This document shows, piece after piece, positions 26,775 through 59,539 of a DNA stretch of 64,000 bases. The DNA lies in the NCBI GenBank assembly GCA_964483625.1, contig CAZABB010000006.1:2129-66128 (forward strand), given 5' to 3'. Source of the stretch: an uncultured Planctomycetia bacterium (GTDB lineage: Bacteria; Omnitrophota; Gorgyraeia; Duberdicusellales; 4484-171). The position numbers were made by a program, and so were the translations under genes. Each line of letters begins with the position of its first letter. Position 1 is the first letter of the stretch. The notes beneath the pieces were generated by a model. That model made no database searches. It was not told the origin of the DNA and saw only the letters and a program-made list of their open reading frames with translations.

Positions 26775-26776
26775 TT

Positions 26777-31915: not shown

Positions 31916-32769
31916 AAATTCTCAAAGAATACGAAAGGCACATGAAGATTTGCAGGAAAAGCCCTGCCACTATCCGGCAGTATGGTAATGACGTGAAGCT
32001 TTTCTGCAATGCTTTCGGTGCGGATATCTTCAAGAGTTCGGGCAAGGACGTTGATGGATTCATTGAGTGGCTCATTGACAGGAAGTGCCAGAACGTAACG
32101 ATTGCGAGAAAGATAGCATCGCTCAGAAGCTTTTACGTCTTTCTCACAGCGAAAGGCTTCGTGAAAAATAATCCATTCCTCAAAGCTCCAAAGCTGAGGA
32201 TCCCCCGGAAAGACCAGAGGGTTCTCACGGGAGAAGAAGTAAATCGGATATTTGAGACCCTGGGGGATTATCCTCCCACTCTTAAAGGCAGGGTGACTGA
32301 TTGCATCCTGCATATCATGTATTTTCTCGGCCTGCGGGTCTTTGAGGTTGCGAGCCTCGATGTCTCAAGCATCTCGGCTCCGCCTGAGAGTTATCTGAAC
32401 TTTATCGGGAAAGGCGGGAAACAAAGAAGCCTTCCGCTTGTCCATGATAAGCTTGTCTGCTCTCTTGATGAATGGATGGAATTTCGGAAAAAGTTTCCCG
32501 GAGTCGAGGCCCTTTTCATCAGCCGTAACCTCAGCAGGATTTCGGTAAGGACTATCCAGAGGTGGATAAAGTGTCTCGGAGTAAATTCCGGCTTGGGGGA
32601 TTGTTTGACGCCTCACGTTCTGAGAAGGACTTTCGCTACCCGGCTTCTTGAGCAGGGGGCTGACCTTTTCTCGGTTGCGGATTTGATGGGGCACGAGAGC
32701 CTCACTACGACAAGGAGGTATGCAGTGGTAACAGACAAAAAGCGGAAGGGCACGCTTCTCTTACTATGA
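31912..32769 (+). CDS. tyrosine recombinase (XerC/D-like)
   Basis: N-terminal SAM-like domain (TIRQYGNDVKLF...IASLRSFYVFL) and catalytic R...HVLRRTFATRLL...GHESLTTTRRY. Its start overlaps the upstream stop (ATGA). Confidence 0.8.
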   Translation: MKILKEYERHMKICRKSPATIRQYGNDVKLFCNAFGADIFKSSGKDVDGFIEWLIDRKCQNVTIARKIASLRSFYVFLTAKGFVKNNPFLKAPKLRIPRKDQRVLTGEEVNRIFETLGDYPPTLKGRVTDCILHIMYFLGLRVFEVASLDVSSISAPPESYLNFIGKGGKQRSLPLVHDKLVCSLDEWMEFRKKFPGVEALFISRNLSRISVRTIQRWIKCLGVNSGLGDCLTPHVLRRTFATRLLEQGADLFSVADLMGHESLTTTRRYAVVTDKKRKGTLLLL

Positions 32770-35751: not shown

Positions 35752-38091
35752 ATGGATAAAGCTGTTCTTGTATCAAAAATTAAGGAGTTGAGCAATCTTG
35801 CTAATAAGCTTCATGGCTTTGAAGATGATGAGGAAAGTTTCCTTGTTGCGATTAAGGGGCTTGACAGGAAGTATCTTGAGGGCGAGCTTGAGAAATTTCG
35901 TGAAGGAAGCATTAGCTGGAATGGCGTTTTGAAGCCTGTTAATTTCCTTAAATTCTTGGTAATAGATAAGGTTCTTGATGACAAGGATGTTTCTCTTGAG
36001 ATTATTGACGAGTTCAAGGATAGGATTCTTAAGCTGGATGTTGATTATTTCAAGGATTATCCTGATTTCAAGGAGGCAATGCTCAAGCTTGAGAAGGGTA
36101 AAAACTTTTTTTGGCAGTGGAACAATATTTTCAAGATTCTTTTTTATGTCTATTATGACCAGCATAAGGACAGCGTCAATTCTTCTCTGACCGAGATTGC
36201 TGACCATTTCAAGACTGTTTTGAATATGAAGGATTCCAAGACAACGATTAACGGGTTTGGGTGGAATAATAATTATGGCTCGAGCGATTGCTGGATTGCT
36301 CTTTATCCTCCTGATAGGGACAGCCATCAGAAGGCTTATCAAATCTTTTTGAGGGTGAATCCTGTAAACGAGCTTGTTTATGGAATGACTAACGGCGCAA
36401 AGATTGCGGAGAACAAGAAGCTTGAGAAGCAGGATGGTTCTAACGTTGATGTAGACAAGCTCGAGAAATTTCTCTTTGAGAAAGCTAAGCCTGAGTATGA
36501 AAAGCTTAACGCCTCTGTTAAACCTGAGCCTGACGAAGAAGAGGTTGACGAAGAATTAAGGGTTGTCGATGAGAAATGCCCCAAGAATGTCATTCTTTAC
36601 GGCCCTCCTGGGACTGGAAAGACTTATATGGCTTACGAGGAGGCTGTTCGCATTGTTGATCCTTCCTTTTCGTGGAAGGACAGGAAGGCTCTCGTTGCTA
36701 AATTTCGTGAGTTTCAGGATAGCGGTTATATCACTTTTGTTACTTTCCATCAGTCTTTCAGCTACGAGGAATTCATTGAGGGTTTCAGGTATGACAAGGA
36801 AGAAAAAATGCCTATGGTTGAGTCTGGCGTGTTCAAGACGCTTGTCGAGAGCGCAAGGTCTGACTATGTAAGTCCTAAGAAGAAGATTGATTTGAACCTT
36901 GCTAAGAGGAATGTATTCAAAATGTCGCTCGGCAACACTCTCAAGGAAGATGAGGATATTTATGATTTCTGTATGCAAGAAGACATCATAGCCATTGGTT
37001 GGGGGCAAGATGTTAACTATACGGGAGCCGATACTAAGGAAAAAGTCGCCAAGAAGTTCAAAGAGCATGAAGGAAGCGATAAAGATTCTGTCTTTAATGT
37101 AACAGCGATTCACTTCTTCAAGAATATCATGAAGAAAGATGACCTTGTATTTGTCTCTAAAGGAAACCGTTCCTTGCGTGCTATTGGTCGTGTTGTGGGG
37201 GAATATTATTATGATGAAAATGTACCTATAAATTATCGCCATTTCAGAAAGGTCGAGTGGCTTCTTACGGACAGCAATATTCCCGTAGAGAAAGTTATGA
37301 AGAAGAATTTCAGCCAGCAGACTATTTATGAGATAAGCAAGAGCTGGCTGCTTGAACAGAACCTTCAGGAGCTTCTTGCTAAACCAGCAGACAATAAGAA
37401 AGAGGTCAGGAATTATGTGCTGATTATCGACGAGATTAACAGGGGGAATATCTCTAAGATTTTCGGGGAGTTAATCACTCTTATTGAGGATGATAAAAGG
37501 CTTGGCATGGAGAACGAGATGGTCGTCAAGCTTCCATACAGCAAGGAGATCGATTTCGGGATTCCTCCCAATATCTATGTTATCGGCACTATGAATACTG
37601 CTGATAGGAGTATAGCTTTGATGGATGTCGCTCTTAGACGAAGGTTTAGTTTTAAGAGGATTGCTCCAGAATCCAAGATTATCTCTGACTTGTTGTCCGA
37701 GAAGGAGGTCGATGGGGATTTTATTGAGATTTTGCAGAAGTCCTTTATTGCCTTGAACAAAAGGATTAAGGTGTTGCTTGATGAAGACCATGTTATAGGG
37801 CATAGTTATTTTCTGAAGATTGGGCCTGAAGATTTCGAGTATGATCTTCATGCTGTCTGGTATGACAAGATTATTCCTCTGCTTCAGGAATATTTCTATA
37901 ATGATTGGGATAAGTTGAGGCTTGTTCTCGGCGAGCATAATTCTCAGAAACGTAGCGGTTTCATTAAGGTTTTAGAGGCTGAATACAAGGGCATTTTCGG
38001 CTCTGAGTTTGATGAGGAGTATCCTTGCGAAATTGTCCGCTATGAGCCTGATTTGTTCTCTCAGGTATTGAAGAACACATTTATCGGATAA
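35752..38091 (+). CDS. mcrB: McrB-family AAA+ GTPase with unknown N-terminal domain and internal PUA/EVE-like insertion
   Basis: Motifs GPPGTGKT, FHQSFSYEEFIEG, LIIDEINRGNISKIFGE, GTMNTADRSIALMDVALRRRF are near-identical to E. coli McrB motifs, but about 175 extra aa lie between FHQS.. and IIDEINR. GGGAGGGGG RBS. Confidence 0.8.
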   Translation: MDKAVLVSKIKELSNLANKLHGFEDDEESFLVAIKGLDRKYLEGELEKFREGSISWNGVLKPVNFLKFLVIDKVLDDKDVSLEIIDEFKDRILKLDVDYFKDYPDFKEAMLKLEKGKNFFWQWNNIFKILFYVYYDQHKDSVNSSLTEIADHFKTVLNMKDSKTTINGFGWNNNYGSSDCWIALYPPDRDSHQKAYQIFLRVNPVNELVYGMTNGAKIAENKKLEKQDGSNVDVDKLEKFLFEKAKPEYEKLNASVKPEPDEEEVDEELRVVDEKCPKNVILYGPPGTGKTYMAYEEAVRIVDPSFSWKDRKALVAKFREFQDSGYITFVTFHQSFSYEEFIEGFRYDKEEKMPMVESGVFKTLVESARSDYVSPKKKIDLNLAKRNVFKMSLGNTLKEDEDIYDFCMQEDIIAIGWGQDVNYTGADTKEKVAKKFKEHEGSDKDSVFNVTAIHFFKNIMKKDDLVFVSKGNRSLRAIGRVVGEYYYDENVPINYRHFRKVEWLLTDSNIPVEKVMKKNFSQQTIYEISKSWLLEQNLQELLAKPADNKKEVRNYVLIIDEINRGNISKIFGELITLIEDDKRLGMENEMVVKLPYSKEIDFGIPPNIYVIGTMNTADRSIALMDVALRRRFSFKRIAPESKIISDLLSEKEVDGDFIEILQKSFIALNKRIKVLLDEDHVIGHSYFLKIGPEDFEYDLHAVWYDKIIPLLQEYFYNDWDKLRLVLGEHNSQKRSGFIKVLEAEYKGIFGSEFDEEYPCEIVRYEPDLFSQVLKNTFIG

Positions 38092-38095
38092 GAAA

Positions 38096-39415
38096 ATGGT
38101 CTTAAAAAATAAAGTTATATCGCTTTCAGAATTTGAAGAAATTCCCCTCTCTGAGCTTGAGGTAAAGATTGGCAAACGAGGCATCAGGCTTTTGAAGAGG
38201 ATTAATTCCCGGAGCGGTTGCGAGATTTTTCGCCTCTTGCATGATAGGGTTAAGGCTTCTCATTATGTGGGTTTTGTCCGTGTTCTTGGTTACACGATTC
38301 AGGTCGTGCCTAAAGTTTTTGGGGAGGACAAGCCGGATAATCTCCATTTCCTTCTTTGCCTTTTGAGATATACAAGGAAGATTCAGGTCAAGGAGCACGA
38401 AATCGGTAATCTGGGGAAGGTCAAGGATGACTTTTTCGAGATATTGATTTTCTTGTTTGCTAAGGCTCTTCGGGAGCTTTTGCGGAGGGATTTTAAAAAG
38501 ACGTATGTTGTCCGTGAAGAAAATAGTCCGTTCTTGAAGGGAAAATTCTTAATCAGTGAGAATGTCAGGCGGAATATTTTTGATGATTCGAGGTATTGTT
38601 GCAGGTTTGATGAATTCACTGAGAATAATTTGATGAATCAGCTCTTTAAGTATGTTGTTTCGATGCTCATAAGGATATCGAGGTCTGTGTCCAATAAGAA
38701 GCTCCTTGAGGATATCCTCATATATTTATGTGATGTTGAATTGGTGAATATTACCTGTGCGGATATTGATAGGATTCACTTTACCCGTCTCAACAATTCA
38801 TATGAGCCGTTGGTAAACCTGTGCAGATTATTCCTTGAAAACATGAGCATCCGTTTCTCAGCTTCCAAGCTCGAGACTTTCGTGTTCATGTTTGACATGA
38901 ACAGGCTGTTTGAGGAATTTGTCTTTGAGTTCGTTAGAAGAAACAGGAGTAAATTGTTTATTGGCGGGGAAAACGAAGTTGTTTTTGTTAAAGACCAGAT
39001 TTATATTGGCAAGCTGTTCGACGAATTCAAGATGCGAGGGGATATTCTCATTAAGGACTCTTCAGGCAGACTTATTTTGTTGGATACGAAGTATAAAACT
39101 CTTGATTCATACGCCCTTCATGGGCGTTTGTCTCAAGCAGACTTTTATCAGATGTTTACTTATTCGACATCGCAAGAACAAAAGTATGAGGATGTAATCT
39201 TGTTGTATCCTTCCAATGAAGAGGTGGCCGAGCCTTTCACTGATAAAGAGCTTAGGCATGTTATAGCTGGAAAAGAGACTGTTAAGATTCATGTCAGAAC
39301 AATCAGTCTTACTAAAATATTCAATGCGGAAAAGAAGTCAATTAATGAGACGGCGATGATTGAAGAGTTAAATAAAGCATTTATGTTGCCTTCTGCTAAT
39401 TTGGTATTGAGGTGA
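38096..39415 (+). CDS. mcrC: McrC-like restriction endonuclease subunit
   Basis: Starts 5 nt after the mcrB-like stop. C-terminal PD-(D/E)xK core LILLDTKYK, McrC-like length. Confidence 0.75.
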   Translation: MVLKNKVISLSEFEEIPLSELEVKIGKRGIRLLKRINSRSGCEIFRLLHDRVKASHYVGFVRVLGYTIQVVPKVFGEDKPDNLHFLLCLLRYTRKIQVKEHEIGNLGKVKDDFFEILIFLFAKALRELLRRDFKKTYVVREENSPFLKGKFLISENVRRNIFDDSRYCCRFDEFTENNLMNQLFKYVVSMLIRISRSVSNKKLLEDILIYLCDVELVNITCADIDRIHFTRLNNSYEPLVNLCRLFLENMSIRFSASKLETFVFMFDMNRLFEEFVFEFVRRNRSKLFIGGENEVVFVKDQIYIGKLFDEFKMRGDILIKDSSGRLILLDTKYKTLDSYALHGRLSQADFYQMFTYSTSQEQKYEDVILLYPSNEEVAEPFTDKELRHVIAGKETVKIHVRTISLTKIFNAEKKSINETAMIEELNKAFMLPSANLVLR

Positions 39416-47889: not shown

Positions 47890-48450
47890 TTATTTTTTTG
47901 AGGAAATAAGGCTTAACGCTTCTTCTCTGGTCTTCTGATTGGAACGGAAGATCCCGCGAACCACACTGGTCACGGTCGTTGCCCCCGGTTTTTTCACCCC
48001 CCGCATCGTCATACAGAGATGTTCGGCTTCGATCACCACCATGACGCCTTTGGGTTTGAGTTTTTTCATGATCACATCGGCGACCGAAGTCGTAAGGCGC
48101 TCCTGAACCTGGAGTCGCCGGGCCAGACAATCCACAACCCGGGCAATCTTACTCAAACCCGTAATGCGATTCTGAGGGATATAGGCGACATGCGCGGTTC
48201 CGATAAACGGAAGCAGATGGTGTTCGCAGAGTGAATACAGCGGAATACCCTTGATCAGGATAATCTCATCGTGCTTCTGCTCCAGGAAAATATCCAGTTC
48301 ATCGGCCGGATCTTTATGTTCCCCCGAAAGTATTTCTTCATACATGTCGGCGACTCGACGGGGTGTGGTCGCGATATCTTTACGCTTAAGATCGGCACCG
48401 ATGCCTTCTAAAATGATTTTCGCCCCTTGACCTATTTTTTTCTTATCCAT
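47890..48450 (-). CDS. folE: GTP cyclohydrolase I
   Basis: CEHHLLPF and HLCMTMRGV motifs. Confidence 0.85.
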
Positions 48451-48540
48451 AATGTTTCATCCTTCCTTTTATGCGCAGATGACCACAGAACAACCCTGCG
48501 AGCCCGGCGGATGATCGCTGATTTTTATCTGCGATGATCC

Positions 48541-48558
48541 CTGCCTGCCGGCAGGCAG
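48541..48558. repeat. 18-bp perfect palindrome CTGCCTGCCGGCAGGCAG flanked by ATCTGCGAT direct repeats
   Basis: Lies between the mnmE 3' end and the folE 5' end. Confidence 0.6.
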
Positions 48559-48594
48559 ATACGTCTCCTCATCTGCGATCCTCTGTGTCTCACC

Positions 48595-50040
48595 CTACTT
48601 CCCGATACAGAACCGGGTGAATATTTTATCCATTACCTCATCGTGCAATGTTTTACCCGTAAGCACATTCATTTTCGCGAATAATTCCCGCAAAGAGAAA
48701 TGAATGAAATCAAGCGAATGTCCGGCCCGATGGAATTGAAGAGCCTTCTCCACTTCCCGTTCCATCTGAACGAGAAGTTCCTTCTGCCATTGAGCCAAAA
48801 AGAGAACATCCTGATTTTTCGCGGTCCGGCCGGATGAAACCGCAGCCACAACAGCTTTCTCCAACGCGGCCATCCCTTTGTTTTTCAGAGCACTCATCTT
48901 GACCCGGCGCGCTTTCATTCGGTTTAACCGGTCACTCTTGAGCCGTTGCGGTAAATCGATTTTATTGAAAATGAGAATAACGTTCTTGTCCTGAACGGCA
49001 TCCAGCAAAAACCGGTCATGAGGGCCAAGCGGTTTTGAAGAATCAAGAACGATCAGGACAAGATCGGCTTCTTTGATCTTCCTCTGCGATTTCTCAATCG
49101 CCTTTTTGTCAATCAGATCCCTGGGTTCAAGGATGCCGGCGGTATCATGCATTTTAAGCGCCACACCGCGAATATATATCTCTTCCTGAATAACATCCCG
49201 AGTCGTTCCGGGAGTACGGGTTACAATAACCCGTTCCTGACGTAAGATGCGGTTGAACAGAGTCGACTTACCGACATTCGCTTTGCCGCAAATAACACAA
49301 TGTATATCCCCGCGGGCCAGATCACCCCGCCGGGCGTCTTCAAGAAAAATCTTAACCGTACGCCTTATGCTCTCCAGATGATTCCTGATCTCATCATCCG
49401 AAACGGCCGTTTCTTCTTCGTCTTCGGGGAACTGGAGGGAGGCTTCAACACGCATAACGAATTCGCTTATCTCATCAGACAGACGGCTGATTTTACGTGA
49501 ATACTCACCGCGCAGCTGAGCCGCCGCCTGAGCCAGTGCCGATTCATTTTTTGCCTCAACAATATCAACAATACTTTGCGCCTGAAGCAGATCAATTCTA
49601 CCTGAGATAAACGCCCGGTAGGTAAATTCGCCCGGCAATGCCAGCCGTACCCCGCGCTGGCAGAGCAGTTCCACGATTTTATTCACCGCCAGTGCGCCGC
49701 CGTGAGAAGAAATCTCTACCACATCCTGACGGGTATAGCTTTGGGGCTTGCGCATCATAGTAACCAGCACCTCATCTACCACCTTCGCTTTTTTCCCCAT
49801 CTTTGCTTTTTGATTTTTGATTTTTGATTTATCTACGATCCATCCGTAATGAACCGAAAATCCCCGCGCCCGGCGAATATCTTTCTTTTTTGCCGGCAAG
49901 AACAATGCCGCCACCTGAGAGATCGCGTCCGGACCGGACACTTTAATAACTCCCAGGGCCGCTTTTCCGGCAGAAGTCGCCACGGCGCAGATCGTATCGT
50001 TATGATTATACCGGCTTATACCGGATACCGGTTCAGACAT
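48595..50040 (-). CDS. mnmE: tRNA modification GTPase MnmE
   Basis: N-terminal TICAVATSAGKAAL, G domain GKANVGKSTLFN, C-terminal CIGK. Start at 50040 (MSEPVSG) preferred over 50079. Confidence 0.85.
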   Translation of the reverse strand: MSEPVSGISRYNHNDTICAVATSAGKAALGVIKVSGPDAISQVAALFLPAKKKDIRRARGFSVHYGWIVDKSKIKNQKAKMGKKAKVVDEVLVTMMRKPQSYTRQDVVEISSHGGALAVNKIVELLCQRGVRLALPGEFTYRAFISGRIDLLQAQSIVDIVEAKNESALAQAAAQLRGEYSRKISRLSDEISEFVMRVEASLQFPEDEEETAVSDDEIRNHLESIRRTVKIFLEDARRGDLARGDIHCVICGKANVGKSTLFNRILRQERVIVTRTPGTTRDVIQEEIYIRGVALKMHDTAGILEPRDLIDKKAIEKSQRKIKEADLVLIVLDSSKPLGPHDRFLLDAVQDKNVILIFNKIDLPQRLKSDRLNRMKARRVKMSALKNKGMAALEKAVVAAVSSGRTAKNQDVLFLAQWQKELLVQMEREVEKALQFHRAGHSLDFIHFSLRELFAKMNVLTGKTLHDEVMDKIFTRFCIGK

Positions 50041-51415
50041 ATGTTCTCGGCCTTCGTATCGCCCGTTTGGCATCGGCAACCAGGAAAAGTGATCCGGCCA
50101 CTACGATCATCGTTCCTTTCTTTCTACGGATCAAATCCCGCGCCAGGTCCAATGCCTGCCGGGAATCCCGGGCATAATGAGCCTTTTGTATTTTCGCTTT
50201 TCTCATAATTTCTTCCGGCGGCATACTGCGGGGATTCTGGAAGCGGGTCAAAATGATTTCTGCATAAGGTATCTTATGAATCATCCAGGCAACATCCTTA
50301 TCCGAAGAAGCTCCGAAAATAAAAACGATTTTTTCACCCCCGTAATAATCACATAGATTCTTTGCCAGCACTCCGAAGGCGGCCGGATTATGAGCAACAT
50401 CAAGAACAACCGGCGGATTGGTTCCGGCCAGCTCAAACCGGCCGGAGATAAACGCAGCCTTCATCCCGACACGAAATCCCTCGGACCCGTTGAGGACTCC
50501 CTCATCGTTCAGAACTCCCATCGCCGCAAGAGCTAGAGAAGCGTTCGTGATTTGACAAACTCCTTTCATCCCGATCTTTAGGCCCCGCAGGTGCTCGTCC
50601 TGCCGAGAAAAGTCAAACCGGGACTCCTCACTTCCCAGGATAACATTTTCAAAATCAAAATCGGTTCCCAGAAGAAAGACTTTCGATCGATTTCGTCGGC
50701 CGGCACGTTTGATTTCCCGTAAGACACCGGGGCGCTGATGGGAACTTACGACAGGAACATTCGGCTTGATAATCCCCGCTTTCTCGCGGGCAATCTCCGG
50801 AAGAGTTCCGCCCAGAACCTGCGTATGATCATAGTCGATCGAGGTTAAAATCGAGATGAGCGGTGTTACCACATTGGTCGCATCAAGCCTTCCGCCCAAT
50901 CCGGTTTCCAGAACGACAAAGTCGGGTTTTTTCTTCAGAAAATAACGCAATGCCAGGGCGGTATAGATTTCAAAAAACGTCGGAGTATCGTGCCCTCCGG
51001 CGCTTCTTATATTCTCCAGAACCGGTTTGAATTCAGCGATAATCGCGATAACCTCCGGGCGGGAGATCGAACTTACATGGATTCCTCCTGTTTTGCCTAT
51101 CGCCTTCTGTTTGCACCGACGGTAAAGGGCAATCCGTTCGGTCAGATCAAAAAAATGAGGCGACGTATAGAGTCCTACGCGATACCCCGATGCGGCAAGC
51201 ATTGAAACGCAGAAGGTCGCCGTCGAACCTTTTCCTTTGGTCCCCGCGATATGGATGTATTTCAGTCGAGAGTACTCGATGCCCAATCGCTTAAGCAGCA
51301 GACGCATTCTATCCAGCTTCATCGCCCGGGCGTAAGAATCTGGCGGCTTCTTCTCGTAATTGATAAACGAATCCAGATACGCGACTGTTTCCTTATAGTT
51401 CATGCATCGCTCCAT
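50033..51415 (-). CDS. folC: bifunctional folylpolyglutamate synthase/dihydrofolate synthase
   Basis: Mur-ligase P-loop HIAGTKGKGST. Confidence 0.8.
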   Translation of the reverse strand: MERCMNYKETVAYLDSFINYEKKPPDSYARAMKLDRMRLLLKRLGIEYSRLKYIHIAGTKGKGSTATFCVSMLAASGYRVGLYTSPHFFDLTERIALYRRCKQKAIGKTGGIHVSSISRPEVIAIIAEFKPVLENIRSAGGHDTPTFFEIYTALALRYFLKKKPDFVVLETGLGGRLDATNVVTPLISILTSIDYDHTQVLGGTLPEIAREKAGIIKPNVPVVSSHQRPGVLREIKRAGRRNRSKVFLLGTDFDFENVILGSEESRFDFSRQDEHLRGLKIGMKGVCQITNASLALAAMGVLNDEGVLNGSEGFRVGMKAAFISGRFELAGTNPPVVLDVAHNPAAFGVLAKNLCDYYGGEKIVFIFGASSDKDVAWMIHKIPYAEIILTRFQNPRSMPPEEIMRKAKIQKAHYARDSRQALDLARDLIRRKKGTMIVVAGSLFLVADAKRAIRRPRTYV

Positions 51416-51463
51416 GGTTCTACCGTGCTATCTCGGAACATTTTCGATCATCTGCGTGACGGA

Positions 51464-52978
51464 TCAGTGGCGGAAGTGACGGATACCCGTAAACACCATC
51501 GAAAGTTTGAGTTTATTACATAATTCGATTATCGACTGATCTTTAATCGACCCCCCCGGCTGAATAATCGCTTTGATTCCGTATCTCTTTATCAACTTTA
51601 CCGAATCGGGCTTAGGAAAGAATCCGTCCGATGCCAATACGGCACCTTTAACGGGTTTAGAGGCGTTGGCGATGGCGATTTTTACCGATCCCACCCGGGA
51701 AGGCTGTCCGCCGCCGATGCCCAGCGTCGCCCCACCTTTGGCAACAACAATGGCGTTGGACTTGACGAACTTAACCACCCGCCAGGCGAACAGCAGATCG
51801 GTCATTTCCCGCTGGGTAGGCTTTCTTTTTGTAACCACTTTCATCTGGTTTTTCTCCAGGATCGCCGTATTGTTATCCTGAATCAAGTATCCGAAAATCG
51901 TGCGTTTGATATCTTTATTATTGGCAACCTTAGAAAAATTCATCTCAAGAACACGCAGATTTTTCTTGGCTGAAAAGAGCTTCAAGGCTTCCTTGGAATA
52001 AGACGGGGCGATAATACATTCTTTGAAATCACTCTTTAATATTTTCTGCGCCGTTTTCCCGTCAATCTTGCGGTTTACCCCCACAATCCCTCCGAAACTC
52101 GAAATCGGATCGCACTTATACGCGCTCTCATACGCGCGATTGAGTTTTTTATTGCAGGCGACACCGCAGGGAGAAGAATGCTTCAAGACGGCAACCGCCG
52201 GTTCGTTGAAACTTTTCACGATAGCGAAAGCCGTATCCAGATCGCACAGATTGTTAAAGGAAAGCGGTTTTCCCTGTATCTGGGTATACTCGACACCTTC
52301 TGTCCCCGAAAGTCTATACAACCCGGCTTTCTGATGAGGGTTTTCTCCGTAACGCAAAGAAGCGGATTTCTCCATGTCCCACACCAGCATATCCTGTTTT
52401 TTCAAAAAACTGAAAATCGCCGCATCATATTCTTTGGTCAACCGGAATATCTCACAGGCAAAATCACGGGAAGTCGCCTCATTTAGCATCCCTTTCTGGT
52501 TTTCCAATTCATCGATGATTCTGCGATACTGGGAAGGCGAAGAGACCGGAATGGTATTTTTGAAATTCTTCGCGGCCGCCCGCAACATCGCCGGGCCGCC
52601 GATATCGACATACTCCATCATCTGATCAAAGGTAAGCTTCTCTTTCAGCATCCGCCGGAACGGATAGAAATTCACGATAACCATATCGATCGAGTCGATT
52701 TCGAGATTCCTCATTTCCTCCATATGCAAAGGATTCCGTTTATTAGCCAGAATCCCGCCGAAAATCTTAGGATGAAGGGTCTTCACCCGTCCGGAAAGAA
52801 TTTCCGGGAACTCGGCAAGAGAAGACACCTTTTTGACCGGAACTCCGCCTTTGGTCAATAACGCCGCGGTCTTTCCCGTAGAGATAATTTCGACATTGAA
52901 TTTCTTGAGCTTCCGGGCGAACTCAAGAAGCCCTTTTTTATTCCATACACTGATCAACGCTCTTCTTACTTTAATCAT
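51464..52978 (-). CDS. purH: bifunctional AICAR formyltransferase/IMP cyclohydrolase
   Basis: MGS-like N-domain ALISVWNKKGL and AICARFT C-domain. ATG at 52978 preferred over the TTG at 52984. Confidence 0.85.
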   Translation of the reverse strand: MIKVRRALISVWNKKGLLEFARKLKKFNVEIISTGKTAALLTKGGVPVKKVSSLAEFPEILSGRVKTLHPKIFGGILANKRNPLHMEEMRNLEIDSIDMVIVNFYPFRRMLKEKLTFDQMMEYVDIGGPAMLRAAAKNFKNTIPVSSPSQYRRIIDELENQKGMLNEATSRDFACEIFRLTKEYDAAIFSFLKKQDMLVWDMEKSASLRYGENPHQKAGLYRLSGTEGVEYTQIQGKPLSFNNLCDLDTAFAIVKSFNEPAVAVLKHSSPCGVACNKKLNRAYESAYKCDPISSFGGIVGVNRKIDGKTAQKILKSDFKECIIAPSYSKEALKLFSAKKNLRVLEMNFSKVANNKDIKRTIFGYLIQDNNTAILEKNQMKVVTKRKPTQREMTDLLFAWRVVKFVKSNAIVVAKGGATLGIGGGQPSRVGSVKIAIANASKPVKGAVLASDGFFPKPDSVKLIKRYGIKAIIQPGGSIKDQSIIELCNKLKLSMVFTGIRHFRH

Positions 52979-52986
52979 ATACAAAT

Positions 52987-53080: not shown

Positions 53081-53776
53081 TTACACATTAAATTTCACCT
53101 CAATAATATCTTCCGCCTGGATGAGGTATTCTTTGCCTACCGTCTGGACCAATCCTTTCGCCCGGGCTTCGGCCATGTTGAAAAACTTATCCAGATCGGC
53201 CGCTTTGGTCACATCAGCCTTGATGAACCCGCGAGCCAGGTCACTGTGAATACGCCCCGCCGCCTCAACAACTGTCGCCCCTTGTTTCACACTCCAGGCG
53301 TGAACTTCTTTTTTCCCGGCGGTAAAAAATAAAAAGACCTGCGCTTTTTTCAGTAGATCGGCGATAAGTTTATCCCGATCCTCTCCTCTCTCAACAGCCA
53401 GAGACGGCTTATAGGTGCCAAAAGAAAGATTCTTTAACAAGCCATGCTCTTCTTCTGTGAATTCACCGTGGGCATCACAGAGAAGCACCTCGCGTTCAAG
53501 CAGTCCCTGCGCTTTCTCCAGTATAGACTGTTCCTTTTGCTCCGGGCCGCGTTGGAGGCGTTTTTCTATTTTTTCCAGATCAAAGAACACATAGTCAAAC
53601 TGTCGAACTTTGGCGTATATGACCGCGTCGGCTTTCTCGAAATCCTCGCCGATAAATTCGACCGTGTACGGTGTTGCTTTTTGAGGAGAAAACTTCTCGA
53701 CGAGCGTATCGAACGTTTGACAATGATATTTATGTTTCCCGGGTTGGACGTCCAAACCAAAGCTGGCAATCTTCAT
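53081..53776 (-). CDS. YchF-like protein lacking the G domain (coiled-coil + TGS domain)
   Basis: The C-terminal 80 aa (FFTAGKKEVHAWSVKQGATVVEAAGRIHSDLARGFIKAD...YLIQAEDIIEVKFNV) match the YchF TGS domain. The N-terminus GLDVQPGKHK is a degenerate P-loop. No G2-G4 region. Confidence 0.5.
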   Translation of the reverse strand: MKIASFGLDVQPGKHKYHCQTFDTLVEKFSPQKATPYTVEFIGEDFEKADAVIYAKVRQFDYVFFDLEKIEKRLQRGPEQKEQSILEKAQGLLEREVLLCDAHGEFTEEEHGLLKNLSFGTYKPSLAVERGEDRDKLIADLLKKAQVFLFFTAGKKEVHAWSVKQGATVVEAAGRIHSDLARGFIKADVTKAADLDKFFNMAEARAKGLVQTVGKEYLIQAEDIIEVKFNV

Positions 53777-55776
53777 CCGTCTTCTTTTTTGGCATCTTTG
53801 GCTTGTTGAATAATCGCCTGGGCAATACGCTGCGGGACAACGTCATAATGAGAAAATTGCATGGTATAACTGCCGCGGCCGCCGGTAACCGAACGTAAAT
53901 CGGAAGCGTACTTAAACATTTCCGCCAGGGGAATCTTTGCCTTCACAATTTCGTTTTTCCCTCGCATCTCCATCCCCATGACCCGGCCCCGGCGGGAATT
54001 GATATCTCCGGTAATCTGCCCCATGAATTCTTCCGGAACGACGATCTCCACGTTCATGATCGGCTCGATAAGAACCGTTTCACTCTGCTCCATCGCTTTT
54101 TTTAAAGCCATCGACCCGGCAATTTGAAAAGACATATCGGATGAATCTACGGGGTGGTATGATCCATCAAAAAGCGTTACCCGGATATCGGATACCGGGA
54201 ATCCGGCAAGAATCCCCGCCTGCATTGCTTTCTTAATTCCTTTTTCCACCGAAGGAATAAAGTTGCGCGGAATTGCGCCGCCGACGATTTTATCGACAAA
54301 TTCAAAATTCTTGCCTCTTTCCAGCGGCTCAACCTCGATAGAAACGTCCCCGTACTGGCCGTGCCCCCCGGTCTGCTTTTTATATTTCGACTGGACTTTT
54401 ACGGGTTTACTCACCGTTTCTCTGTAAGGGACTTTAGGGGTCCCTAAATCGACATTCGCGCCGTATTTGCGTTTCATCCGCTCAATGATGACGTTTAAAT
54501 GCAATTCCCCCATCCCGGAGATAATCAGTTCTTTGGTCTGTTCGTCACGGGAAACACAAAAAGTAGGATCTTCACTGGTCAGACGCGAAAGCGCCGTGGA
54601 TATTTTTTCCTCATCTTTACGCGATTTTGGTTTGACCGATGCCGAATAGACCGGCGAGGGAAATACCAACTCGGGAAAGACGAAATTCTTGCCCGCGGTA
54701 GCCAGAGTATCCTGTGTATGCGTGTCTTTTAACTTTGCCACCGCAACAATATCTCCCGCGGAAACCTGCTCTTTCGCGATCTGCTGTTTGCCCTGCAAGG
54801 CAAATATCTGGCCGACCTTTTCTTTGGTCTGAGTCGTTACGTTATACATGTCCGAACTGGCCGAGAGGGTACCGGAAAATATCCGAAAAATACTCATTTG
54901 CCCCACAAAAGGGTCGATCACCGTCTTAAACACTTGAGCGGCAAATTCTCCGCCAGCGTCAGGCTCAACGGTCATCTCGTTTCCCTCAGACGTTTTTACC
55001 GTACGCGGCAGGGCATCGGAAACCGCCGGCATTTCCTTACGGATAAAATCGATTAAAAACTGAACACCGGTCTCCTCAACCGCCACACCTCCCAATATAG
55101 GAAATACTTTTGAATGCACGATTGCTTTACGTAACGCCGGGACAAATTCGGCTTCCTCCAGCGCTCCGGTTTCAAGGTACTTCTCCAAAAGCGCATCATC
55201 ACTTTCGGCAACTTTTTCCACGATCTGCCCGTAGGCGTCACTGAAAGCATCTTTCTGTTCGATAACTCCCGCGACCTTACCCGACTCAACGACGGCAATA
55301 GGCACGGCGTCTTTGGTAAGCGTTTCTCGGATCTCTTTTACCAGAGAAGCATAATCGCTTGTCGCTTTATCCATTTTATTAATGAAAAACAGACAGGGAA
55401 GATTTTCCCGCCGGGCCAGATCCCAGGCTTTCTCGGTACCCACCTCAACGCCGGCCGCGGCATCAACCACAATGACCACAAAATCGACGGCACGAACGGC
55501 CGCGCAGAGTTCTCCGACAAAGTCAAGATATCCCGGCACGTCGATAAACTGGAAAGAATAGTCCTTTCCTTCGGCATTCACGACCGAAAGGTTGATCGAG
55601 CTCCTCCGGTCCTTCTCATCCTCTTCATGATCGCTGATACTGGTCCCGTCATCGACTTTACCGAACCGGGAAGATGCGCCTAATTTATACAGGATTGCTT
55701 CGATAAGAGAGGTCTTGCCGCTCTGGGCATGCCCACATAACAAGAAGGTAAATTTTTGCGCGAGGTTTGTACTCAT
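53773..55776 (-). CDS. elongation factor G-family GTPase (EF-G paralog)
   Basis: G1 GHAQSGKTSL, G3 DVPGYLDF, G4 NKMD. EF-G domains II-V present. 667 aa. Confidence 0.75.
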   Translation of the reverse strand: MSTNLAQKFTFLLCGHAQSGKTSLIEAILYKLGASSRFGKVDDGTSISDHEEDEKDRRSSINLSVVNAEGKDYSFQFIDVPGYLDFVGELCAAVRAVDFVVIVVDAAAGVEVGTEKAWDLARRENLPCLFFINKMDKATSDYASLVKEIRETLTKDAVPIAVVESGKVAGVIEQKDAFSDAYGQIVEKVAESDDALLEKYLETGALEEAEFVPALRKAIVHSKVFPILGGVAVEETGVQFLIDFIRKEMPAVSDALPRTVKTSEGNEMTVEPDAGGEFAAQVFKTVIDPFVGQMSIFRIFSGTLSASSDMYNVTTQTKEKVGQIFALQGKQQIAKEQVSAGDIVAVAKLKDTHTQDTLATAGKNFVFPELVFPSPVYSASVKPKSRKDEEKISTALSRLTSEDPTFCVSRDEQTKELIISGMGELHLNVIIERMKRKYGANVDLGTPKVPYRETVSKPVKVQSKYKKQTGGHGQYGDVSIEVEPLERGKNFEFVDKIVGGAIPRNFIPSVEKGIKKAMQAGILAGFPVSDIRVTLFDGSYHPVDSSDMSFQIAGSMALKKAMEQSETVLIEPIMNVEIVVPEEFMGQITGDINSRRGRVMGMEMRGKNEIVKAKIPLAEMFKYASDLRSVTGGRGSYTMQFSHYDVVPQRIAQAIIQQAKDAKKEDG

Positions 55777-55916: not shown

Positions 55917-56159
55917 TTATTTAAGAACGCCGCCGGGAATGATTCCTTTTTGGGCGACCGGGGATGTTACGACTTTCCCCGCGGTATGAGCGATCTTTGC
56001 CGTTGATTCGACGACTTTTCCGGTTGTCGTCACGACTTTCCCCGCGGTATCGATCGCTTCCCCGGGAATTTTAAGCAGAACACAGCCGGTGAAAATGAAT
56101 ATACACCATCCCGCCAAAAACATCCTGTTTATCACCATTAATCGATATTCATTATTCAT
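55917..56159 (-). CDS. small lipoprotein-like repeat protein
   Basis: FIFTGC lipobox-like motif with (TAGKVVT)n repeats. Confidence 0.3.
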   Translation of the reverse strand: MNNEYRLMVINRMFLAGWCIFIFTGCVLLKIPGEAIDTAGKVVTTTGKVVESTAKIAHTAGKVVTSPVAQKGIIPGGVLK

Positions 56160-56171
56160 GATGGATAGGAT

Positions 56172-56678
56172 CTACCGAAATAATCCGGCATAGAGAGAAT
56201 CCCGGTACATACGAATTTTTTTCAGTTTGAGCAGGTGCTTTTCCTCTTCGCCGATGATCAGGCTCAACGTATCCCGAGCCGGTTTCTCTTTAACGTATTC
56301 CCGGACTTTCTGATAAAAAATAAGCGTGTTTATCTCAACATCCATCGCCAGCTTAAGCAATCTCACATGCGCATTCTTTTGCTGGACGGCCGTATCCCGA
56401 ACCTCAGAGACATCGAAAAACGCCATCCCGCGCATAAAGGCATCAAGCAGATCCTCAAACTGGCTGTCGGCTTTAAACGATCCTTTGCGGCGGCGGGTCC
56501 GATTGGCCAGCCGGGTAAACCGCCGGGCATGTTTTATTTCCTGGTCCCGCAAATACACAAACAGTTTCTGCAGCTGTTTATCAGTAGTCAGACGCAGCGC
56601 TTTCTCATAGAATATTTCTCCCTGCTGCTCGATATTCACCGCCCACCTCAGGATATCATCGAACGCATACTTCGCCAT
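56172..56678 (-). CDS. ferritin-like (rubrerythrin-family) domain protein
   Basis: ExxH pairs (EIKHARRF, EEEKHLLKL). Confidence 0.55.
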   Translation of the reverse strand: MAKYAFDDILRWAVNIEQQGEIFYEKALRLTTDKQLQKLFVYLRDQEIKHARRFTRLANRTRRRKGSFKADSQFEDLLDAFMRGMAFFDVSEVRDTAVQQKNAHVRLLKLAMDVEINTLIFYQKVREYVKEKPARDTLSLIIGEEEKHLLKLKKIRMYRDSLYAGLFR

Positions 56679-56685
56679 TGTTCGT

Positions 56686-57189
56686 TTACACCCCCTTCTC
56701 TATCTTGAGGATATTCACAAGGAGTTCTTTATGTTTTTCTTCCTGGGAAATGATCTCATCCAGTTCTTTTCGGGTATCAGCAATGACATGTTCGGCGCAC
56801 GCCCGATAGAACGCTATGGATTTATCTTCAATGATCACCCCCAGATTAAGCGCCCGGCCGACATCGCTGATCACCTCACACATTTCTTTCATCTGATTGT
56901 ACGGTTCATAGATGCCGAAATCCATACTACCCAGGAGATCATTATCCTCGCCGGGATCCGGTTCTTTTTGTCTGAGTTCAGTAAGGGCGTTCTCGAAAAA
57001 CGAAAGATGTTTTCTCTCCTCTTCGATAAGGAATTTCAGCATCGACTGAGCCTTCTCATCGTGAGTACATGCGAGAACTTTTTCGTAAAAACTGATGCCC
57101 TGTTTTTCGACCGCAAGCGCCATCCGATAGGCGTCAAATCCGCTGAAATCGGTAATCACCGGTTTGCCGTCATGTATTTTTATTTGCAT
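56686..57189 (-). CDS. ferritin-like (rubrerythrin-family) domain protein, tandem paralog
   Basis: EEERKHLSFF and EEKHKELL motifs, same architecture as the neighbour. Confidence 0.55.
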   Translation of the reverse strand: MQIKIHDGKPVITDFSGFDAYRMALAVEKQGISFYEKVLACTHDEKAQSMLKFLIEEERKHLSFFENALTELRQKEPDPGEDNDLLGSMDFGIYEPYNQMKEMCEVISDVGRALNLGVIIEDKSIAFYRACAEHVIADTRKELDEIISQEEKHKELLVNILKIEKGV

Positions 57190-57216: not shown

Positions 57217-58536
57217 TTAATAAGTATACATCGCATCGATTATCCCGGCCATAACAAAGTCATTCTCGGTAAGTCCGCCCGCGGCGTGAGTCGTAAGGAT
57301 AACGGTCAACTTATTGTAGCCAAACCGGACCGAAGGATGATGCCCTTCGGCTTTTGCCACTTCCGCGATCAGATGAGCGAAAAGCTGTACATCGCCGTAA
57401 TGTGAAAACGAAAATTGTTTTTTGATTTTGGTCGCCTTGATCGATTCCCAGCAGGAAAGTTCACCTAACCGTTCGGTAACGGCGCTTTCGGATAATGAAG
57501 AAATACCTCCTTCACAGACGACACAATGCCCTGCTTCCGGCGCATCCTGCGCCGGCGACGCGAGGATACTCTTTAATGCTTTCAGGATTTCCTCATAATC
57601 GGGGCTTTGCGTAAGCTCGGGTACGATCTGGATATACCGAATGACATCGTTTTTATCGACGATCACGACCGCCCGGGCAAGCAATTTCAATTCTTTAATG
57701 AGCAATCCGTAATTACTCCCGAACGAAAGCGACTGGTAATCGCTTAATGTAGTCACCTTATCGATACTGTTTGCCTGACAGAACCGCTTCTGAGCGAAAG
57801 GGAGATCACAGCTGATCCCGACGATCACAACGTCATCGGAAAATGTTGCTGCCTTTTTATTGAATTCCTTCACCTGCAGGTCACAGACCGGCGTATCCAG
57901 GGACGGGAAACTGGTCAGGATCTTTACCTTCCCGGCAAAGGCGCCCAATCCTGCGGGCTTTAAACCGGTATCGACCGCGCTGAAACTACTTGCTCTCCGG
58001 CCTAAAACCAGCGGCCGGCCGGCACAATGAAGCGATGCGCCGGAAAACGTCACCACCCCCGGTGCGTGGGCTCCCAGGGTAACCTCCCGCAGTCTCTGGC
58101 GTACCCGTTCGCGATGGTCTTTCGTCATCTTCTTCAAAGCACCCAGTAAGTCTTTAAGCTGATCGGCATCGTTTTCGATAACTTCAAAAAAGTCCTTTTC
58201 TAAAAAGGCGTCTTCGACCTCTAACGCCATCTCAAGCACATTCCGTTCGCTCACCGAAGCCTTTTGAACGCGAACGATAAGATCGTCGATCTTTTGAGCA
58301 AACGCCTCCACCGCCAACATGCTGAATCGTCCTGTATCGACCGCCACGTCTTTACTTTGAACTTTTTTATGGAAATCGGCAAGAACCCGGGCGTGGTCGA
58401 GTTCCTCATCAACCAGTTTGCGGAAGAAATCATCTAAAGCGGGCACTTTTTTGGCGCACCATGCATACAGCCGCCCGGCGGCCTCTTCATTCTGGATCAT
58501 GACCGTTAATTGCGCGAGATTTTCCTTTTCTGACAT
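57217..58536 (-). CDS. three-domain fusion: ferritin-like + Tpx-type thiol peroxidase + pterin-4a-carbinolamine dehydratase
   Basis: N-terminal ferritin-like (DEELDHARVL). Middle Tpx motifs (FPSLDTPVCDLQVKEFNKKAA...ISCDLPFAQKRFC). C-terminal PCD motif (VAKAEGHHPSVRFGYNKLTVILTTHA). Confidence 0.65.
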   Translation of the reverse strand: MSEKENLAQLTVMIQNEEAAGRLYAWCAKKVPALDDFFRKLVDEELDHARVLADFHKKVQSKDVAVDTGRFSMLAVEAFAQKIDDLIVRVQKASVSERNVLEMALEVEDAFLEKDFFEVIENDADQLKDLLGALKKMTKDHRERVRQRLREVTLGAHAPGVVTFSGASLHCAGRPLVLGRRASSFSAVDTGLKPAGLGAFAGKVKILTSFPSLDTPVCDLQVKEFNKKAATFSDDVVIVGISCDLPFAQKRFCQANSIDKVTTLSDYQSLSFGSNYGLLIKELKLLARAVVIVDKNDVIRYIQIVPELTQSPDYEEILKALKSILASPAQDAPEAGHCVVCEGGISSLSESAVTERLGELSCWESIKATKIKKQFSFSHYGDVQLFAHLIAEVAKAEGHHPSVRFGYNKLTVILTTHAAGGLTENDFVMAGIIDAMYTY

Positions 58537-58663
58537 AGCATATCCTCCTTTTATGGACTACCCTGTTTGCATCCCCTACTATACCGCATTATCCCTTTGG
58601 CTTCAACGCTTTTGATCATATTGACTTATCGGGGAGTTCTTCTACAATAAAAAATAAAAGCCT

Positions 58664-59539
58664 ATGCGGCTCATTACCCCCTTCGATCCCTGGCGCAACG
58701 AATTCTGCAGCTGTCCTCCCAAATACAGCCTCTCACCCTACACCGGCTGCGAGCACGGCTGTCTCTATTGTTACGCCTCATCCTACATTGTCCGTTTCGG
58801 CCGGGTACGATCCAAAAAAGATTGCATCTCCCGCCTGAAGAAAGAAATACAAAAGATACCGCCCGGGACTACCCTCACCGCGGCCAACTCATCCGATCCT
58901 TATCCTGTTCAGGAAAAAGAATCCGGACTTACCCGGCAGATGCTTGAGGTACTCCTGCGGCATGATATCGGATTGTTACTTGTTACCAAATCTTCGCTGG
59001 TCGAACGCGATCTGGATGTTCTCAAAAAATTTCGGCGGCTGGTTGTCGCCATCACGATCACCACCGCCGATTGCGAGATTGCCGGGAAACTCGAACCCAA
59101 CGCTCCCTCTCCCGAACAACGCCTTCATACGATAGCACGCCTCTCGCCTCACATACCGGTCATCTACCGGCTTGATCCGCTGATCTTCCCGCTCAATACA
59201 CCGGAGGTCCCGGTTCTCATAGACCGGATACGATCCGCTGGCGCCCGGCAGATTATCACCTCGACGTACAAAACAAAACCGGATAATTTCAAACGGATGT
59301 GTGCCGTCTTCAGGCGGCATAAAGAGCTCTGGGAAGACCTCTATATGAACAGGGGTGAGACGTTCGGGAACTACCGCTATCTGCCGCAAAATTTACGGAA
59401 AAAACTCATCCTGAACGTAAAAAAAGAGGCGGAAAGAGCCGGCCTTCGCTTTTCCTCCTGCCGCGAGGGATTCTCTCCTTACAATACCGCCTCATGTGAC
59501 GGCTCGCATTTTTTACAAAATGACACAGATGACCGCTGA
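58664..59539 (+). CDS. radical SAM protein (SplB/DNA-photolyase-like family)
   Basis: CxxxCxxC cluster GCEHGCLYCYA near the N-terminus. Confidence 0.6.
   Translation: MRLITPFDPWRNEFCSCPPKYSLSPYTGCEHGCLYCYASSYIVRFGRVRSKKDCISRLKKEIQKIPPGTTLTAANSSDPYPVQEKESGLTRQMLEVLLRHDIGLLLVTKSSLVERDLDVLKKFRRLVVAITITTADCEIAGKLEPNAPSPEQRLHTIARLSPHIPVIYRLDPLIFPLNTPEVPVLIDRIRSAGARQIITSTYKTKPDNFKRMCAVFRRHKELWEDLYMNRGETFGNYRYLPQNLRKKLILNVKKEAERAGLRFSSCREGFSPYNTASCDGSHFLQNDTDDR

Follow-up and report, generated by a model that had tools for sequence, protein, structure and literature searches.

A thiol peroxidase fused to a pterin-4a-carbinolamine dehydratase: a common yet uncharacterized pairing that bears a rare ferritin-like addition in one Omnitrophota lineage

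Why should a peroxidase be joined, in a single polypeptide, to a pterin dehydratase and a ferritin-like bundle? The question is raised by one gene in a window of 64,000 nucleotides (the whole stretch of DNA analyzed here), which comes from contig CAZABB010000006.1 of an uncultured Planctomycetia bacterium placed by GTDB in the Omnitrophota. The gene encodes a protein of 439 amino acids in which an N-terminal four-helix bundle, referred to here as the N-domain, is followed by a thiol peroxidase (Tpx), an atypical 2-Cys peroxiredoxin, and then by a domain of the pterin-4a-carbinolamine dehydratase (PCD/DCoH) family. The fusion of Tpx to PCD is common yet uncharacterized, and rarity is limited to the N-terminal ferritin-like addition. 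The best overall explanation is that the fusion leads an oxygen- and peroxide-stress operon built around Tpx, with the roles for the PCD and the N-domain that are proposed below. Taken whole, this explanation is on balance somewhat probable, while the part that concerns Tpx and the stress operon is highly probable. The gene and its domains are as follows.

57217..58536, minus strand: three-domain gene (ferritin-like N-domain, Tpx and PCD), 439 codons plus stop, ATG start.
58066..58536, minus strand: predicted ferritin-like four-helix-bundle N-domain, residues 1-157, from profile matches, ligand columns and a domain model.
57559..58053, minus strand: Tpx (atypical 2-Cys peroxiredoxin) domain, residues 162-326, from NCBIfam model NF001808, PDB profile matches, Foldseek and invariant residues.
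57220..57528, minus strand: PCD/DCoH domain with an N-terminal CxxC, residues 337-439, from Pfam Pterin_4a, PDB matches and catalytic residues.

The initial annotation described a single open reading frame (ORF) that joins three domains, and this description is borne out. In a program-made list of ORFs, the gene is a single uninterrupted frame on the minus strand, with a strong AGGAGG ribosome-binding site 5' of its start, and the motifs DTPVCDLQVKEFN, CDLPFAQKRFC and EGHHP are all found in its product. Pfam recognizes Rubrerythrin at residues 11-144 (E=1.5e-4, with 22.6 bits where the gathering score is 22.8), Redoxin at residues 180-318 (E=9.6e-23), AhpC-TSA (E=1.4e-18) and Pterin_4a at residues 347-435 (E=8.2e-22). 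An AlphaFold2 model of the whole protein, built from an alignment of 116 sequences, has a mean pLDDT of 91.4 and a pTM of 0.80 and contains three folded domains. The helices of the bundle span residues 3-30, 32-60, 73-92, 97-113 and 125-157, and are followed by a thioredoxin fold and then by a small alpha/beta domain, in which the order of secondary structure is that of the PCD/DCoH fold.

Homologs with the same three domains allow the integrity of the gene to be assessed. A homolog search returned, besides the window protein itself (P0001, from NCBI, on a 77.7-kb contig), a 439-residue protein from a separate Logan assembly (P0002, on contig L001) that is 75% identical over its full length, and a 445-residue protein from a JGI metagenome (P0003) that is 52% identical. 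The order of genes on the P0002 contig is syntenic, with a 457-residue protein, a YgaP-like membrane protein, a divergent radical-SAM gene, the fusion gene and a 167-residue ferritin-like gene. Compared codon by codon, the window and L001 genes show zero indels in 439 codons and near-saturated synonymous sites (pS ~0.6), and dN/dS is 0.21 for the N-domain, 0.13 for the junction (codons 150-175), 0.07 for Tpx and 0.08 for PCD. Each domain, as well as the junction between the N-domain and Tpx, is thus under purifying selection. It might be supposed that an assembly or frameshift error has fused an upstream ferritin-like gene to an ordinary Tpx-PCD gene of 283 residues. At the Omnitrophota locus L022 a ferritin gene does end only about 12 nt 5' of Tpx-PCD, which makes accidental read-through conceivable, and a tblastn match ran across both genes there. 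Against this stand the identical architecture in three independent assemblies (NCBI, Logan and JGI), the indel-free comparison with L001 and the constraint at the junction. The junction also has no internal Met or ribosome-binding site before the Tpx moiety, the AlphaFold2 model is confident through it, and the N-domain belongs to another family than the classical ferritin encoded upstream of Tpx-PCD in relatives. An artifact of this kind is extremely improbable. The fusion therefore stands up to the frameshift check that had been called for, and on the evidence of its sequence the 439-residue ORF is one genuine gene.

The middle domain had been assigned to the atypical 2-Cys Tpx peroxiredoxins, and every line of comparison agrees. 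It scores 183.3 bits with the NCBIfam Tpx equivalog NF001808 (cutoff 123; residues 162-322), matches Tpx chains in the PDB with E-values down to 1.7e-39 and 41-44% identity to the solved proteins, and its predicted model superimposes on solved Tpx in Foldseek with TMt of 0.85-0.93 and root-mean-square deviations of 1.6-2.7 A. The active-site signature PxxxTxxC reads P211-S-L-D-T215-P-V-C218, in which Cys218, encoded at 57883-57885, is the predicted peroxidatic cysteine; the conserved arginine is R288. The resolving cysteine, Cys253, lies at the Tpx-specific position equivalent to C95 of the Escherichia coli protein. In an alignment of 69 homologs, T215, C218, C253 and R288 are invariant, and the FAQxRFC motif is found in all 69. 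Homology thus strongly supports the view that the middle domain is a canonical, working Tpx.

The C-terminal domain likewise bears out its earlier assignment to PCD/DCoH on the strength of an EGHHP motif, with a Pfam Pterin_4a (PF01329) score of 77.6 bits against a gathering threshold of 26 and matches to PDB chains of PCD/DCoH at E=2.7e-9 to 3e-5. Residues C338, C341, H399, H400, P401, H417 and D426 do not vary among the 69 fused proteins aligned, and Y407 is nearly invariant. The catalytic motif of COG2154 PCDs, reportedly defined by Naponelli in 2008, is [EDKH]x3H[HN][PCS]x5-6[YWF]x9[HW]x8-15D, and the window domain fits it as K-AEG-H-H-P-SVRFG-Y-NKLTVILTT-H-AAGGLTEN-D; the full expression is matched by 57 of the 69 homologs. 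The domain therefore retains the complete PCD catalytic set (His399, His400, His417 and Asp426), and its catalytic activity is, in our estimate, an evenly balanced matter. The invariant CxxC (C338 and C341) was considered as a redox relay specific to the fusion and ruled out, since the same HCVPCEGG sequence occurs in stand-alone PCDs from metagenome-assembled genomes (MAGs) labelled Chloroflexota, Gammaproteobacteria, Nanoarchaeia, Dormiibacterota and Zambryskiibacteriota, which are unrelated phyla. The CxxC is instead ancestral to the PCD domain and retained in the fusion.

The classical partner of PCD is an O2-dependent aromatic amino acid hydroxylase, which is not expected in an anaerobe, as the host probably is, and none was found among the ORFs scanned in the window. 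PCD homologs occur in many bacteria without a pterin-dependent hydroxylase. According to PMC3223725, which cites Naponelli 2008, COG2154 proteins are experimentally validated PCDs in 8 prokaryotes, and a role outside hydroxylase recycling, related to the molybdenum cofactor (Moco), has been proposed for them.

How unusual, then, is the fusion? The best 120 of 1103 matches to the fusion protein were examined, and all 117 other than P0001-P0003 carry Redoxin and Pterin_4a. Among these matches the two-domain proteins are nearly all 280-292 residues long, typically about 283, and come mostly from Omnitrophota MAGs. Those to which their source gives a name are called 'thiol peroxidase', 'lipid hydroperoxide peroxidase' or 'thioredoxin-dependent peroxiredoxin'. 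When species-representative genomes were scanned, 79 loci were recovered, with Tpx and PCD fused in one ORF at 40, a plain Tpx at 29 and a stand-alone PCD at 9. The fused set comes from 40 species-level genomes, mostly Omnitrophota, with Ca. Velamenicoccus archaeovorus LiM, whose genome is complete, among them. Literature searches yielded no mention of a Tpx-PCD fusion. The first description of the fusion as unusual consequently holds for the N-terminal addition and fails for Tpx-PCD, and of the possibility that the architecture is common and already annotated, only half is true: the pair is common, and it is named only as a thiol peroxidase.

The three-domain form is limited, among the same 120 matches, to three sequences of one clade (P0001-P0003), and the set is judged to be three because any such protein would outrank every other match. 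A HMMER search with the N-domain agrees, in that P0001 is the only protein of about 440 residues, the length expected for an N-domain carried on Tpx-PCD, among the best 150 of 1800 matches. A metagenome scan with N-domain peptide patterns gave zero relatives, and in a second one, made with degenerate DNA encoding RFSxLAVEAFA, the 4 matches were due to chance, none having a homologous ORF. Locus L022, where the match ran over residues 14-436, was considered as a fourth case and ruled out, as it holds a separate ferritin gene and a 283-residue Tpx-PCD gene.

A rough neighbor-joining tree of the Tpx domain places the three-domain proteins near the base. A sub-clade of plain Tpx proteins (L052-L064) is nested within the Tpx-PCD radiation, and the nesting suggests that PCD was secondarily lost there. 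Two further arrangements were seen in the survey. In an Omnitrophota MAG (L048, 7971-8800) the frame that encodes Tpx differs from that of PCD, the only split form encountered; it was rejected as a natural split gene on account of its 1.3x coverage and is probably a sequencing frameshift. A 399-residue Logan protein (P0036) carries an N-terminal rhodanese (PF00581) ahead of Tpx-PCD, making another three-domain relative, from which it would follow that the N-terminus of Tpx-PCD has gained accessory domains more than once.

The N-domain is predicted to have a ferritin-like fold, and it belongs to an uncharacterized family that is not rubrerythrin. Its conserved positions are E17, Y24, E45-x-x-H48, E108, E113, D123 and T138-x-x-H141. 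Profile comparison with the PDB finds TM1526 (1VJX) at E=8e-4 and symerythrin at E=0.016. Modelled alone, the domain reaches a pLDDT of 96.4, and Foldseek relates the model to MJ0754, symerythrin, ferritins, aldehyde-deformylating oxygenase, TM1526 and 3FSE with TMq of 0.5-0.7, at E-values of only about 0.2; for MJ0754, the ferritins, aldehyde-deformylating oxygenase and TM1526 the values are 0.6-0.7. In the case of 3FSE, a DJ-1/ferritin-like fusion, it is the ferritin-like half that matches. When the N-domain profile was searched exhaustively with HMMER, 863 cluster representatives reached E<=1e-10. The majority are stand-alone and about 155 residues long, with some tandem duplications of 310-370 residues, and most of them score at or below the Pfam thresholds. 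Among 116 members of the family, all have E17, Y24, H48 and E108; 115 have E45 and 115 have H141, and the figure for E113 and D123 is 111. The second bridging-Glu position, which is T138 in the window protein, is Thr in 100 of the 116 and Glu in only 2. The spacing of the ligands (E17-x27-E45xxH48 and E108-x29-T138xxH141) places Thr138 in the canonical register, so that the hallmark of the family, E/ExxH/E/TxxH, would amount to a set of 3 Glu and 2 His. The same count of ligands is found in the dimanganese catalases.

What had been called a rubrerythrin/ferritin-like di-iron domain is accordingly retained as a ferritin-like bundle, on the basis of the model. The rubrerythrin type is dropped, given the Pfam score just under threshold, the Thr at position 138 and the lack of a rubredoxin-like Fe(Cys)4 domain, none being found by Pfam in the fusion or in the two ferritin-like neighbors described below, nor in the model of the fusion. 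Tandem-duplicated members of the family (P0121-P0127 and similar proteins; L095, 3027-4043) contain two E/ExxH/E/TxxH copies in about 310-370 residues; the gene for P0121 is positioned after genes for Nqr/Rnf-type subunits and a Fer2-FAD-NAD reductase. Otherwise the closest non-fused relatives of the N-domain come from short contigs, and their gene neighborhoods gave no lead to function.

The surroundings of the gene in the window give the fusion its local context, and consist of the following features.

56686..57189, minus strand: FerA, a stand-alone ferritin-like di-iron protein of 167 residues (Pfam Rubrerythrin, 37.2 bits).
56172..56678, minus strand: FerB, a stand-alone ferritin-like di-iron protein of 168 residues, TM1526-like (Pfam Rubrerythrin, 36.1 bits).
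55917..56159, minus strand: ORF of 80 residues, 12 nt 3' of FerB, from the ORF list; possibly the last gene of the operon.
58578..58606, minus strand: sigma-70-like promoter TTGAAG-17-TATAGT, from a consensus scan, about 40 nt 5' of the start of the fusion gene.
58537..58663, no strand assigned: intergenic region separating the fusion operon from a divergent radical-SAM gene, 87% identical to L001, with promoter-like sites on both strands.
58664..59539, plus strand: divergent radical-SAM gene (PA0069/DUF1848/SPL-like), from Pfam and NCBIfam.

FerA begins 27 nt 3' of the fusion gene and FerB 7 nt 3' of FerA, all on the same strand, and the three genes therefore look like one operon. The two neighbors had been placed directly upstream in the initial annotation; they are in fact downstream, as the genes run on the minus strand. 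They had also been called paralogs, an idea that fails for the N-domain, which was considered as a recent duplicate of FerA or FerB and ruled out (BLASTP E>0.5). That they belong with the fusion is, on the other hand, upheld by their operon-like spacing and by the position of their orthologs after Tpx-PCD in L005. As read from the sequence, both FerA and FerB have a complete E/ExxH/E/ExxH ligand set. FerA has orthologs in L001 (75% identity) and in the Omnitrophota locus L005 (47%, E=5e-51); FerB has one in L005 (40%, E=2e-47) and matches PDB entry 1VJX (TM1526) at E=2.4e-11. The pair is orthologous to the two genes that follow Tpx-PCD and DJ-1 in the Omnitrophota loci L005 and L007. Whether the 80-residue ORF belongs to the operon is uncertain and is suggested by spacing alone. 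It gave zero Pfam or NCBIfam matches. Its N-terminus is hydrophobic and closes with FTGC (lipobox-like, and possibly a lipoprotein signal), and the ORF also contains short TAGKVVT/TGKVVES repeats.

Upstream, both hexamers of the putative promoter (TTGAAG and TATAGT) are kept in L001. Because the 87% identity of 58537..58663 to L001 is far above the identity at synonymous sites, this region is probably regulatory and shared by the two divergent units; it may include a Fur/PerR-type operator. A block containing GATAAT overlaps the -10 element. The divergent arrangement of a radical-SAM gene and the fusion recurs in L001, L027 and L048.

In relatives, the Tpx-PCD gene is found in richer company. 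Loci annotated with Pfam have, in this order, Fur, an FNR-like reductase, rubrerythrin, NifU, desulfoferrodoxin, ferritin, Tpx-PCD, DJ-1/PfpI, FerA and FerB, and continue after FerB with a glycosyltransferase, prismane, rubredoxin (Rd), a flavodiiron protein (FDP), a rubrerythrin-like protein and glutaredoxin. The recurring core of this island is a hybrid-cluster protein (HCP), an FNR-like protein, superoxide reductase (SOR), in some cases ferritin, Rd, Tpx with or without PCD, in some cases DJ-1, a second FNR-like protein and FDP. In a BLAST census with the Pfam-annotated genes as references, limited to the fetched flanks of the 40 fused genome loci, at least one island gene (rubredoxin, flavodiiron, superoxide reductase, hybrid-cluster, rubrerythrin or Fur) lies near Tpx-PCD at 31 of the 40 loci. 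A classical ferritin gene stands directly 5' of Tpx-PCD at six loci (L003, L005, L007, L022, L030 and L035), and in the window protein the N-domain occupies the place of that upstream gene. The earlier proposal of a peroxide-detoxification cluster in an anaerobe therefore draws its support from the context of the relatives, as the window itself has no Rd, FDP, SOR, HCP, rubrerythrin or Fur gene.

The module of Tpx-PCD, FerA and FerB in the window lineage is detached from the island and is paired with a radical-SAM gene, as in L027 and L048. Two side observations concern the loci of relatives. DJ-1/PfpI lies directly 3' of Tpx-PCD at 11 loci (L003, L005, L007, L011, L015, L019, L026, L031, L043, L051 and L072) and never after plain Tpx in the Omnitrophota sub-clade L049/L052-L064. 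A MetH-like gene with S-methyl_trans, Pterin_bind and B12-binding domains is found at L005 (1-398) and L007 (1-357), about 2.5 kb upstream of Fur, the first gene of the island, with three opposite-strand genes in between.

What could the three domains do together? The fusion would be the first cistron of a small oxygen- and peroxide-stress operon comprising the fusion, FerA, FerB and perhaps the 80-residue ORF. Its host is most likely an anaerobe related to the Omnitrophota, a placement drawn from best matches, synteny and the Tpx tree. In the Tpx step, Cys218 would attack H2O2 or an organic hydroperoxide and become a sulfenic acid, which Cys253 would resolve to an intramolecular disulfide, with the enzyme restored by a thioredoxin-type reductant. 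PCD was fused to Tpx early in the Omnitrophota lineage and would still bind and dehydrate 4a-hydroxy-tetrahydropterin. In an anaerobe, pterin carbinolamines and hydroperoxides might arise mainly when O2 or H2O2 enters and oxidizes reduced pterins and folates without the help of an enzyme, and the presence of folE and folC 4-9 kb from the operon suggests that the organism makes such compounds. Tpx could then reduce a pterin or folate 4a-hydroperoxide to the 4a-carbinolamine, and PCD could dehydrate this to a quinonoid dihydropterin that can be re-reduced, so that the cofactor would be rescued without release of H2O2. The N-domain would be a lineage-specific addition with a predicted dinuclear-metal site of 3 Glu and 2 His, and together with FerA and FerB would probably bind Fe or Mn, either for the reduction of peroxide or for the sequestration of iron against Fenton chemistry.

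Several observations weigh against this explanation, and most of them concern the PCD. Five NCBIfam PCD models match from residue 336, each under its equivalog cutoff, the best being NF002019 (75.2 against 137) and NF002017 (70.1 against 80). The Omnitrophota sub-clade L052-L064 has a plain Tpx in the same operon slot, and its nesting inside the Tpx-PCD clade implies that PCD is dispensable for the core function of the island. No pterin, Moco or dihydropteridine-reductase gene consistently adjoins the fusion, and no riboswitch or other Rfam family, including the tetrahydrofolate and Moco riboswitches, was found near the operon. The N-domain has five of the six di-iron ligands, with one bridging carboxylate missing, so that the di-iron ligand check fails with a Thr conserved across the family in place of a bridging Glu. 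Rd, FDP, SOR, HCP, rubrerythrin and Fur are all missing from the 64-kb window, and assignment of the window locus to a stress regulon rests in consequence on orthology. Literature searches found no experiments on any Tpx-PCD protein, and the specific coupling of Tpx to PCD through pterin hydroperoxides, which is deduced from chemistry alone, is rather doubtful.

The same observations on PCD invite a different role for the domain, in which it would be non-catalytic and serve as a DCoH-like module for dimerization, tetramerization or protein binding that alters the Tpx oligomer or docks a partner. DCoH is generally known as a moonlighting protein-binding module, L052-L064 have lost PCD with the operon otherwise unchanged, and the domain falls under the NCBIfam cutoffs. 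Yet the His/His/His/Asp set and the HHP sequence are invariant in 69 of 69 fused proteins, whereas plant RAF2, a non-catalytic PCD-like protein, and others of its kind have lost the catalytic motif. The PCD dN/dS of 0.08 and the motifs, which are indistinguishable from those of stand-alone bacterial PCDs, also speak for a working active site, and a scaffold role is considered rather improbable.

A second alternative accepts that all domains are active and denies that they cooperate. Tpx and a housekeeping PCD, serving for instance Moco or pterin metabolism, would merely be fused and co-expressed while acting independently, and the N-domain would be a third antioxidant module. For every domain there is indeed a stand-alone family of which it is a full and canonical member, the short linkers show little conservation (as in linker 327-336), and other N-terminal fusions are known; with the rhodanese of P0036 as an example, the N-terminus of Tpx appears to tolerate added domains. 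The fusion has nevertheless persisted through a deep radiation (about 50% identity) at a very uniform 280-291 residues, an adjacent split pair of Tpx and PCD was seen only in the 1.3x-coverage MAG at L048, and the stress-island position is consistent across loci. Independence of this kind is possible, if on the unlikely side. The stress-operon explanation in which the domains have joint roles is still the one we favor. Its boldest form would make Tpx-PCD a bifunctional cofactor-repair enzyme of anaerobes, in which Tpx reduces 4a-hydroperoxy pterins, folates or Moco precursors and PCD dehydrates the products, with a Mn-catalase-like domain added in the window lineage to give an antioxidant protein of three activities; we regard this version as unlikely.

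The remainder of the window contains a run of folate-linked genes (47890-52984, minus strand) on the same strand as the operon and 4-9 kb downstream of it, and, next to this run, a short ORF that resembles part of YchF.

51464-52984, minus strand: purH, in the folate-linked run.
50033-51415, minus strand: folC (TIGR01499, 322 bits).
48595-50079, minus strand: mnmE, in the folate-linked run.
47890-48450, minus strand: folE, GTP cyclohydrolase I, in the folate-linked run.
53081-53776, minus strand: ORF of 231 residues, matching only the C-terminal ~100 residues of the YchF model.

The match of the last of these to 'redox-regulated ATPase YchF' scores 102 bits against a cutoff of 279, the N-terminal GTPase part being unrecognized, and the ATGA with which the ORF opens overlaps the stop codon of an EF-G-like gene at 53773-55776. 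Farther away, a mobile and defense island occupies 10553-39415.

10553-12253: large serine recombinase.
12763-16321: restriction-modification methylase/endonuclease fusion and specificity subunit.
19133-20146 and 31912-32769: two tyrosine integrases.
25374-26867: HerA-like ATPase.
35752-39415: McrBC pair.

The interest of the locus lies less in the rare three-domain form than in the way a peroxidase and a pterin dehydratase have stayed linked. A phylum-wide fusion with invariant catalytic residues, located in an oxygen-stress island, amounts to a Rosetta-stone hint, which suggests that PCD chemistry in anaerobes is tied to the damage that peroxide does to reduced pterins or folates. If the cofactor-repair idea is true, PCD would have a physiological role that does not depend on the aromatic amino acid hydroxylases, and such a role is said to have been suspected since a survey of COG2154 in 2008. 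The label 'thiol peroxidase', given by automated annotation, meanwhile leaves out of sight about 40% of the two-domain protein and, in the three-domain protein, about 60%. The window protein also offers a first functional lead for the E/ExxH/E/TxxH family, which numbers hundreds of cluster representatives.

Set beside known systems, each part of the protein has counterparts. The Tpx proteins of E. coli, Bacillus subtilis and Staphylococcus aureus (PDB 3HVS, 2JSY and 3P7X) share their peroxidatic and resolving cysteines, Thr and Arg with the window Tpx; characterized Tpx proteins are single-domain, of about 165 residues, whereas the window Tpx carries a folded domain on either side. Bacterial PCDs of the PhhB type (COG2154, PF01329) and DCoH have in common with the window PCD the HHP...Y...H...D motif and the N-terminal CxxC, and the window copy differs in its fusion to a peroxidase and in its sub-cutoff equivalog scores. 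Rubrerythrin, symerythrin (3QHB) and TM1526 (1VJX) have a four-helix bundle with the same E...ExxH...E...xxxH spacing as the predicted bundle of the N-domain, but possess a second bridging Glu where the N-domain has Thr138; the N-domain also lacks a rubredoxin domain and is sub-threshold in Pfam. Over Tpx and PCD together, the counterparts are the Omnitrophota Tpx-PCD proteins of about 283 residues, such as that of Ca. Velamenicoccus archaeovorus LiM (NZ_CP019384), which are uncharacterized too. They are orthologous to residues 160-439, with 47-58% identity overall and no difference in the catalytic residues or the CxxC, and some have a FerA/FerB pair downstream. Unlike the window protein, they have no N-domain and usually lie inside the Rd/FDP/SOR/HCP island. 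Neither PCD nor ferritin-like domains are known to act as reductants. A precedent for the general principle is provided by the peroxiredoxin-glutaredoxin hybrid of Haemophilus influenzae, in which a peroxiredoxin is covalently joined to a domain of the same redox pathway; Tpx-PCD shares the principle, but in the hybrid it is the partner domain that reduces the peroxiredoxin.

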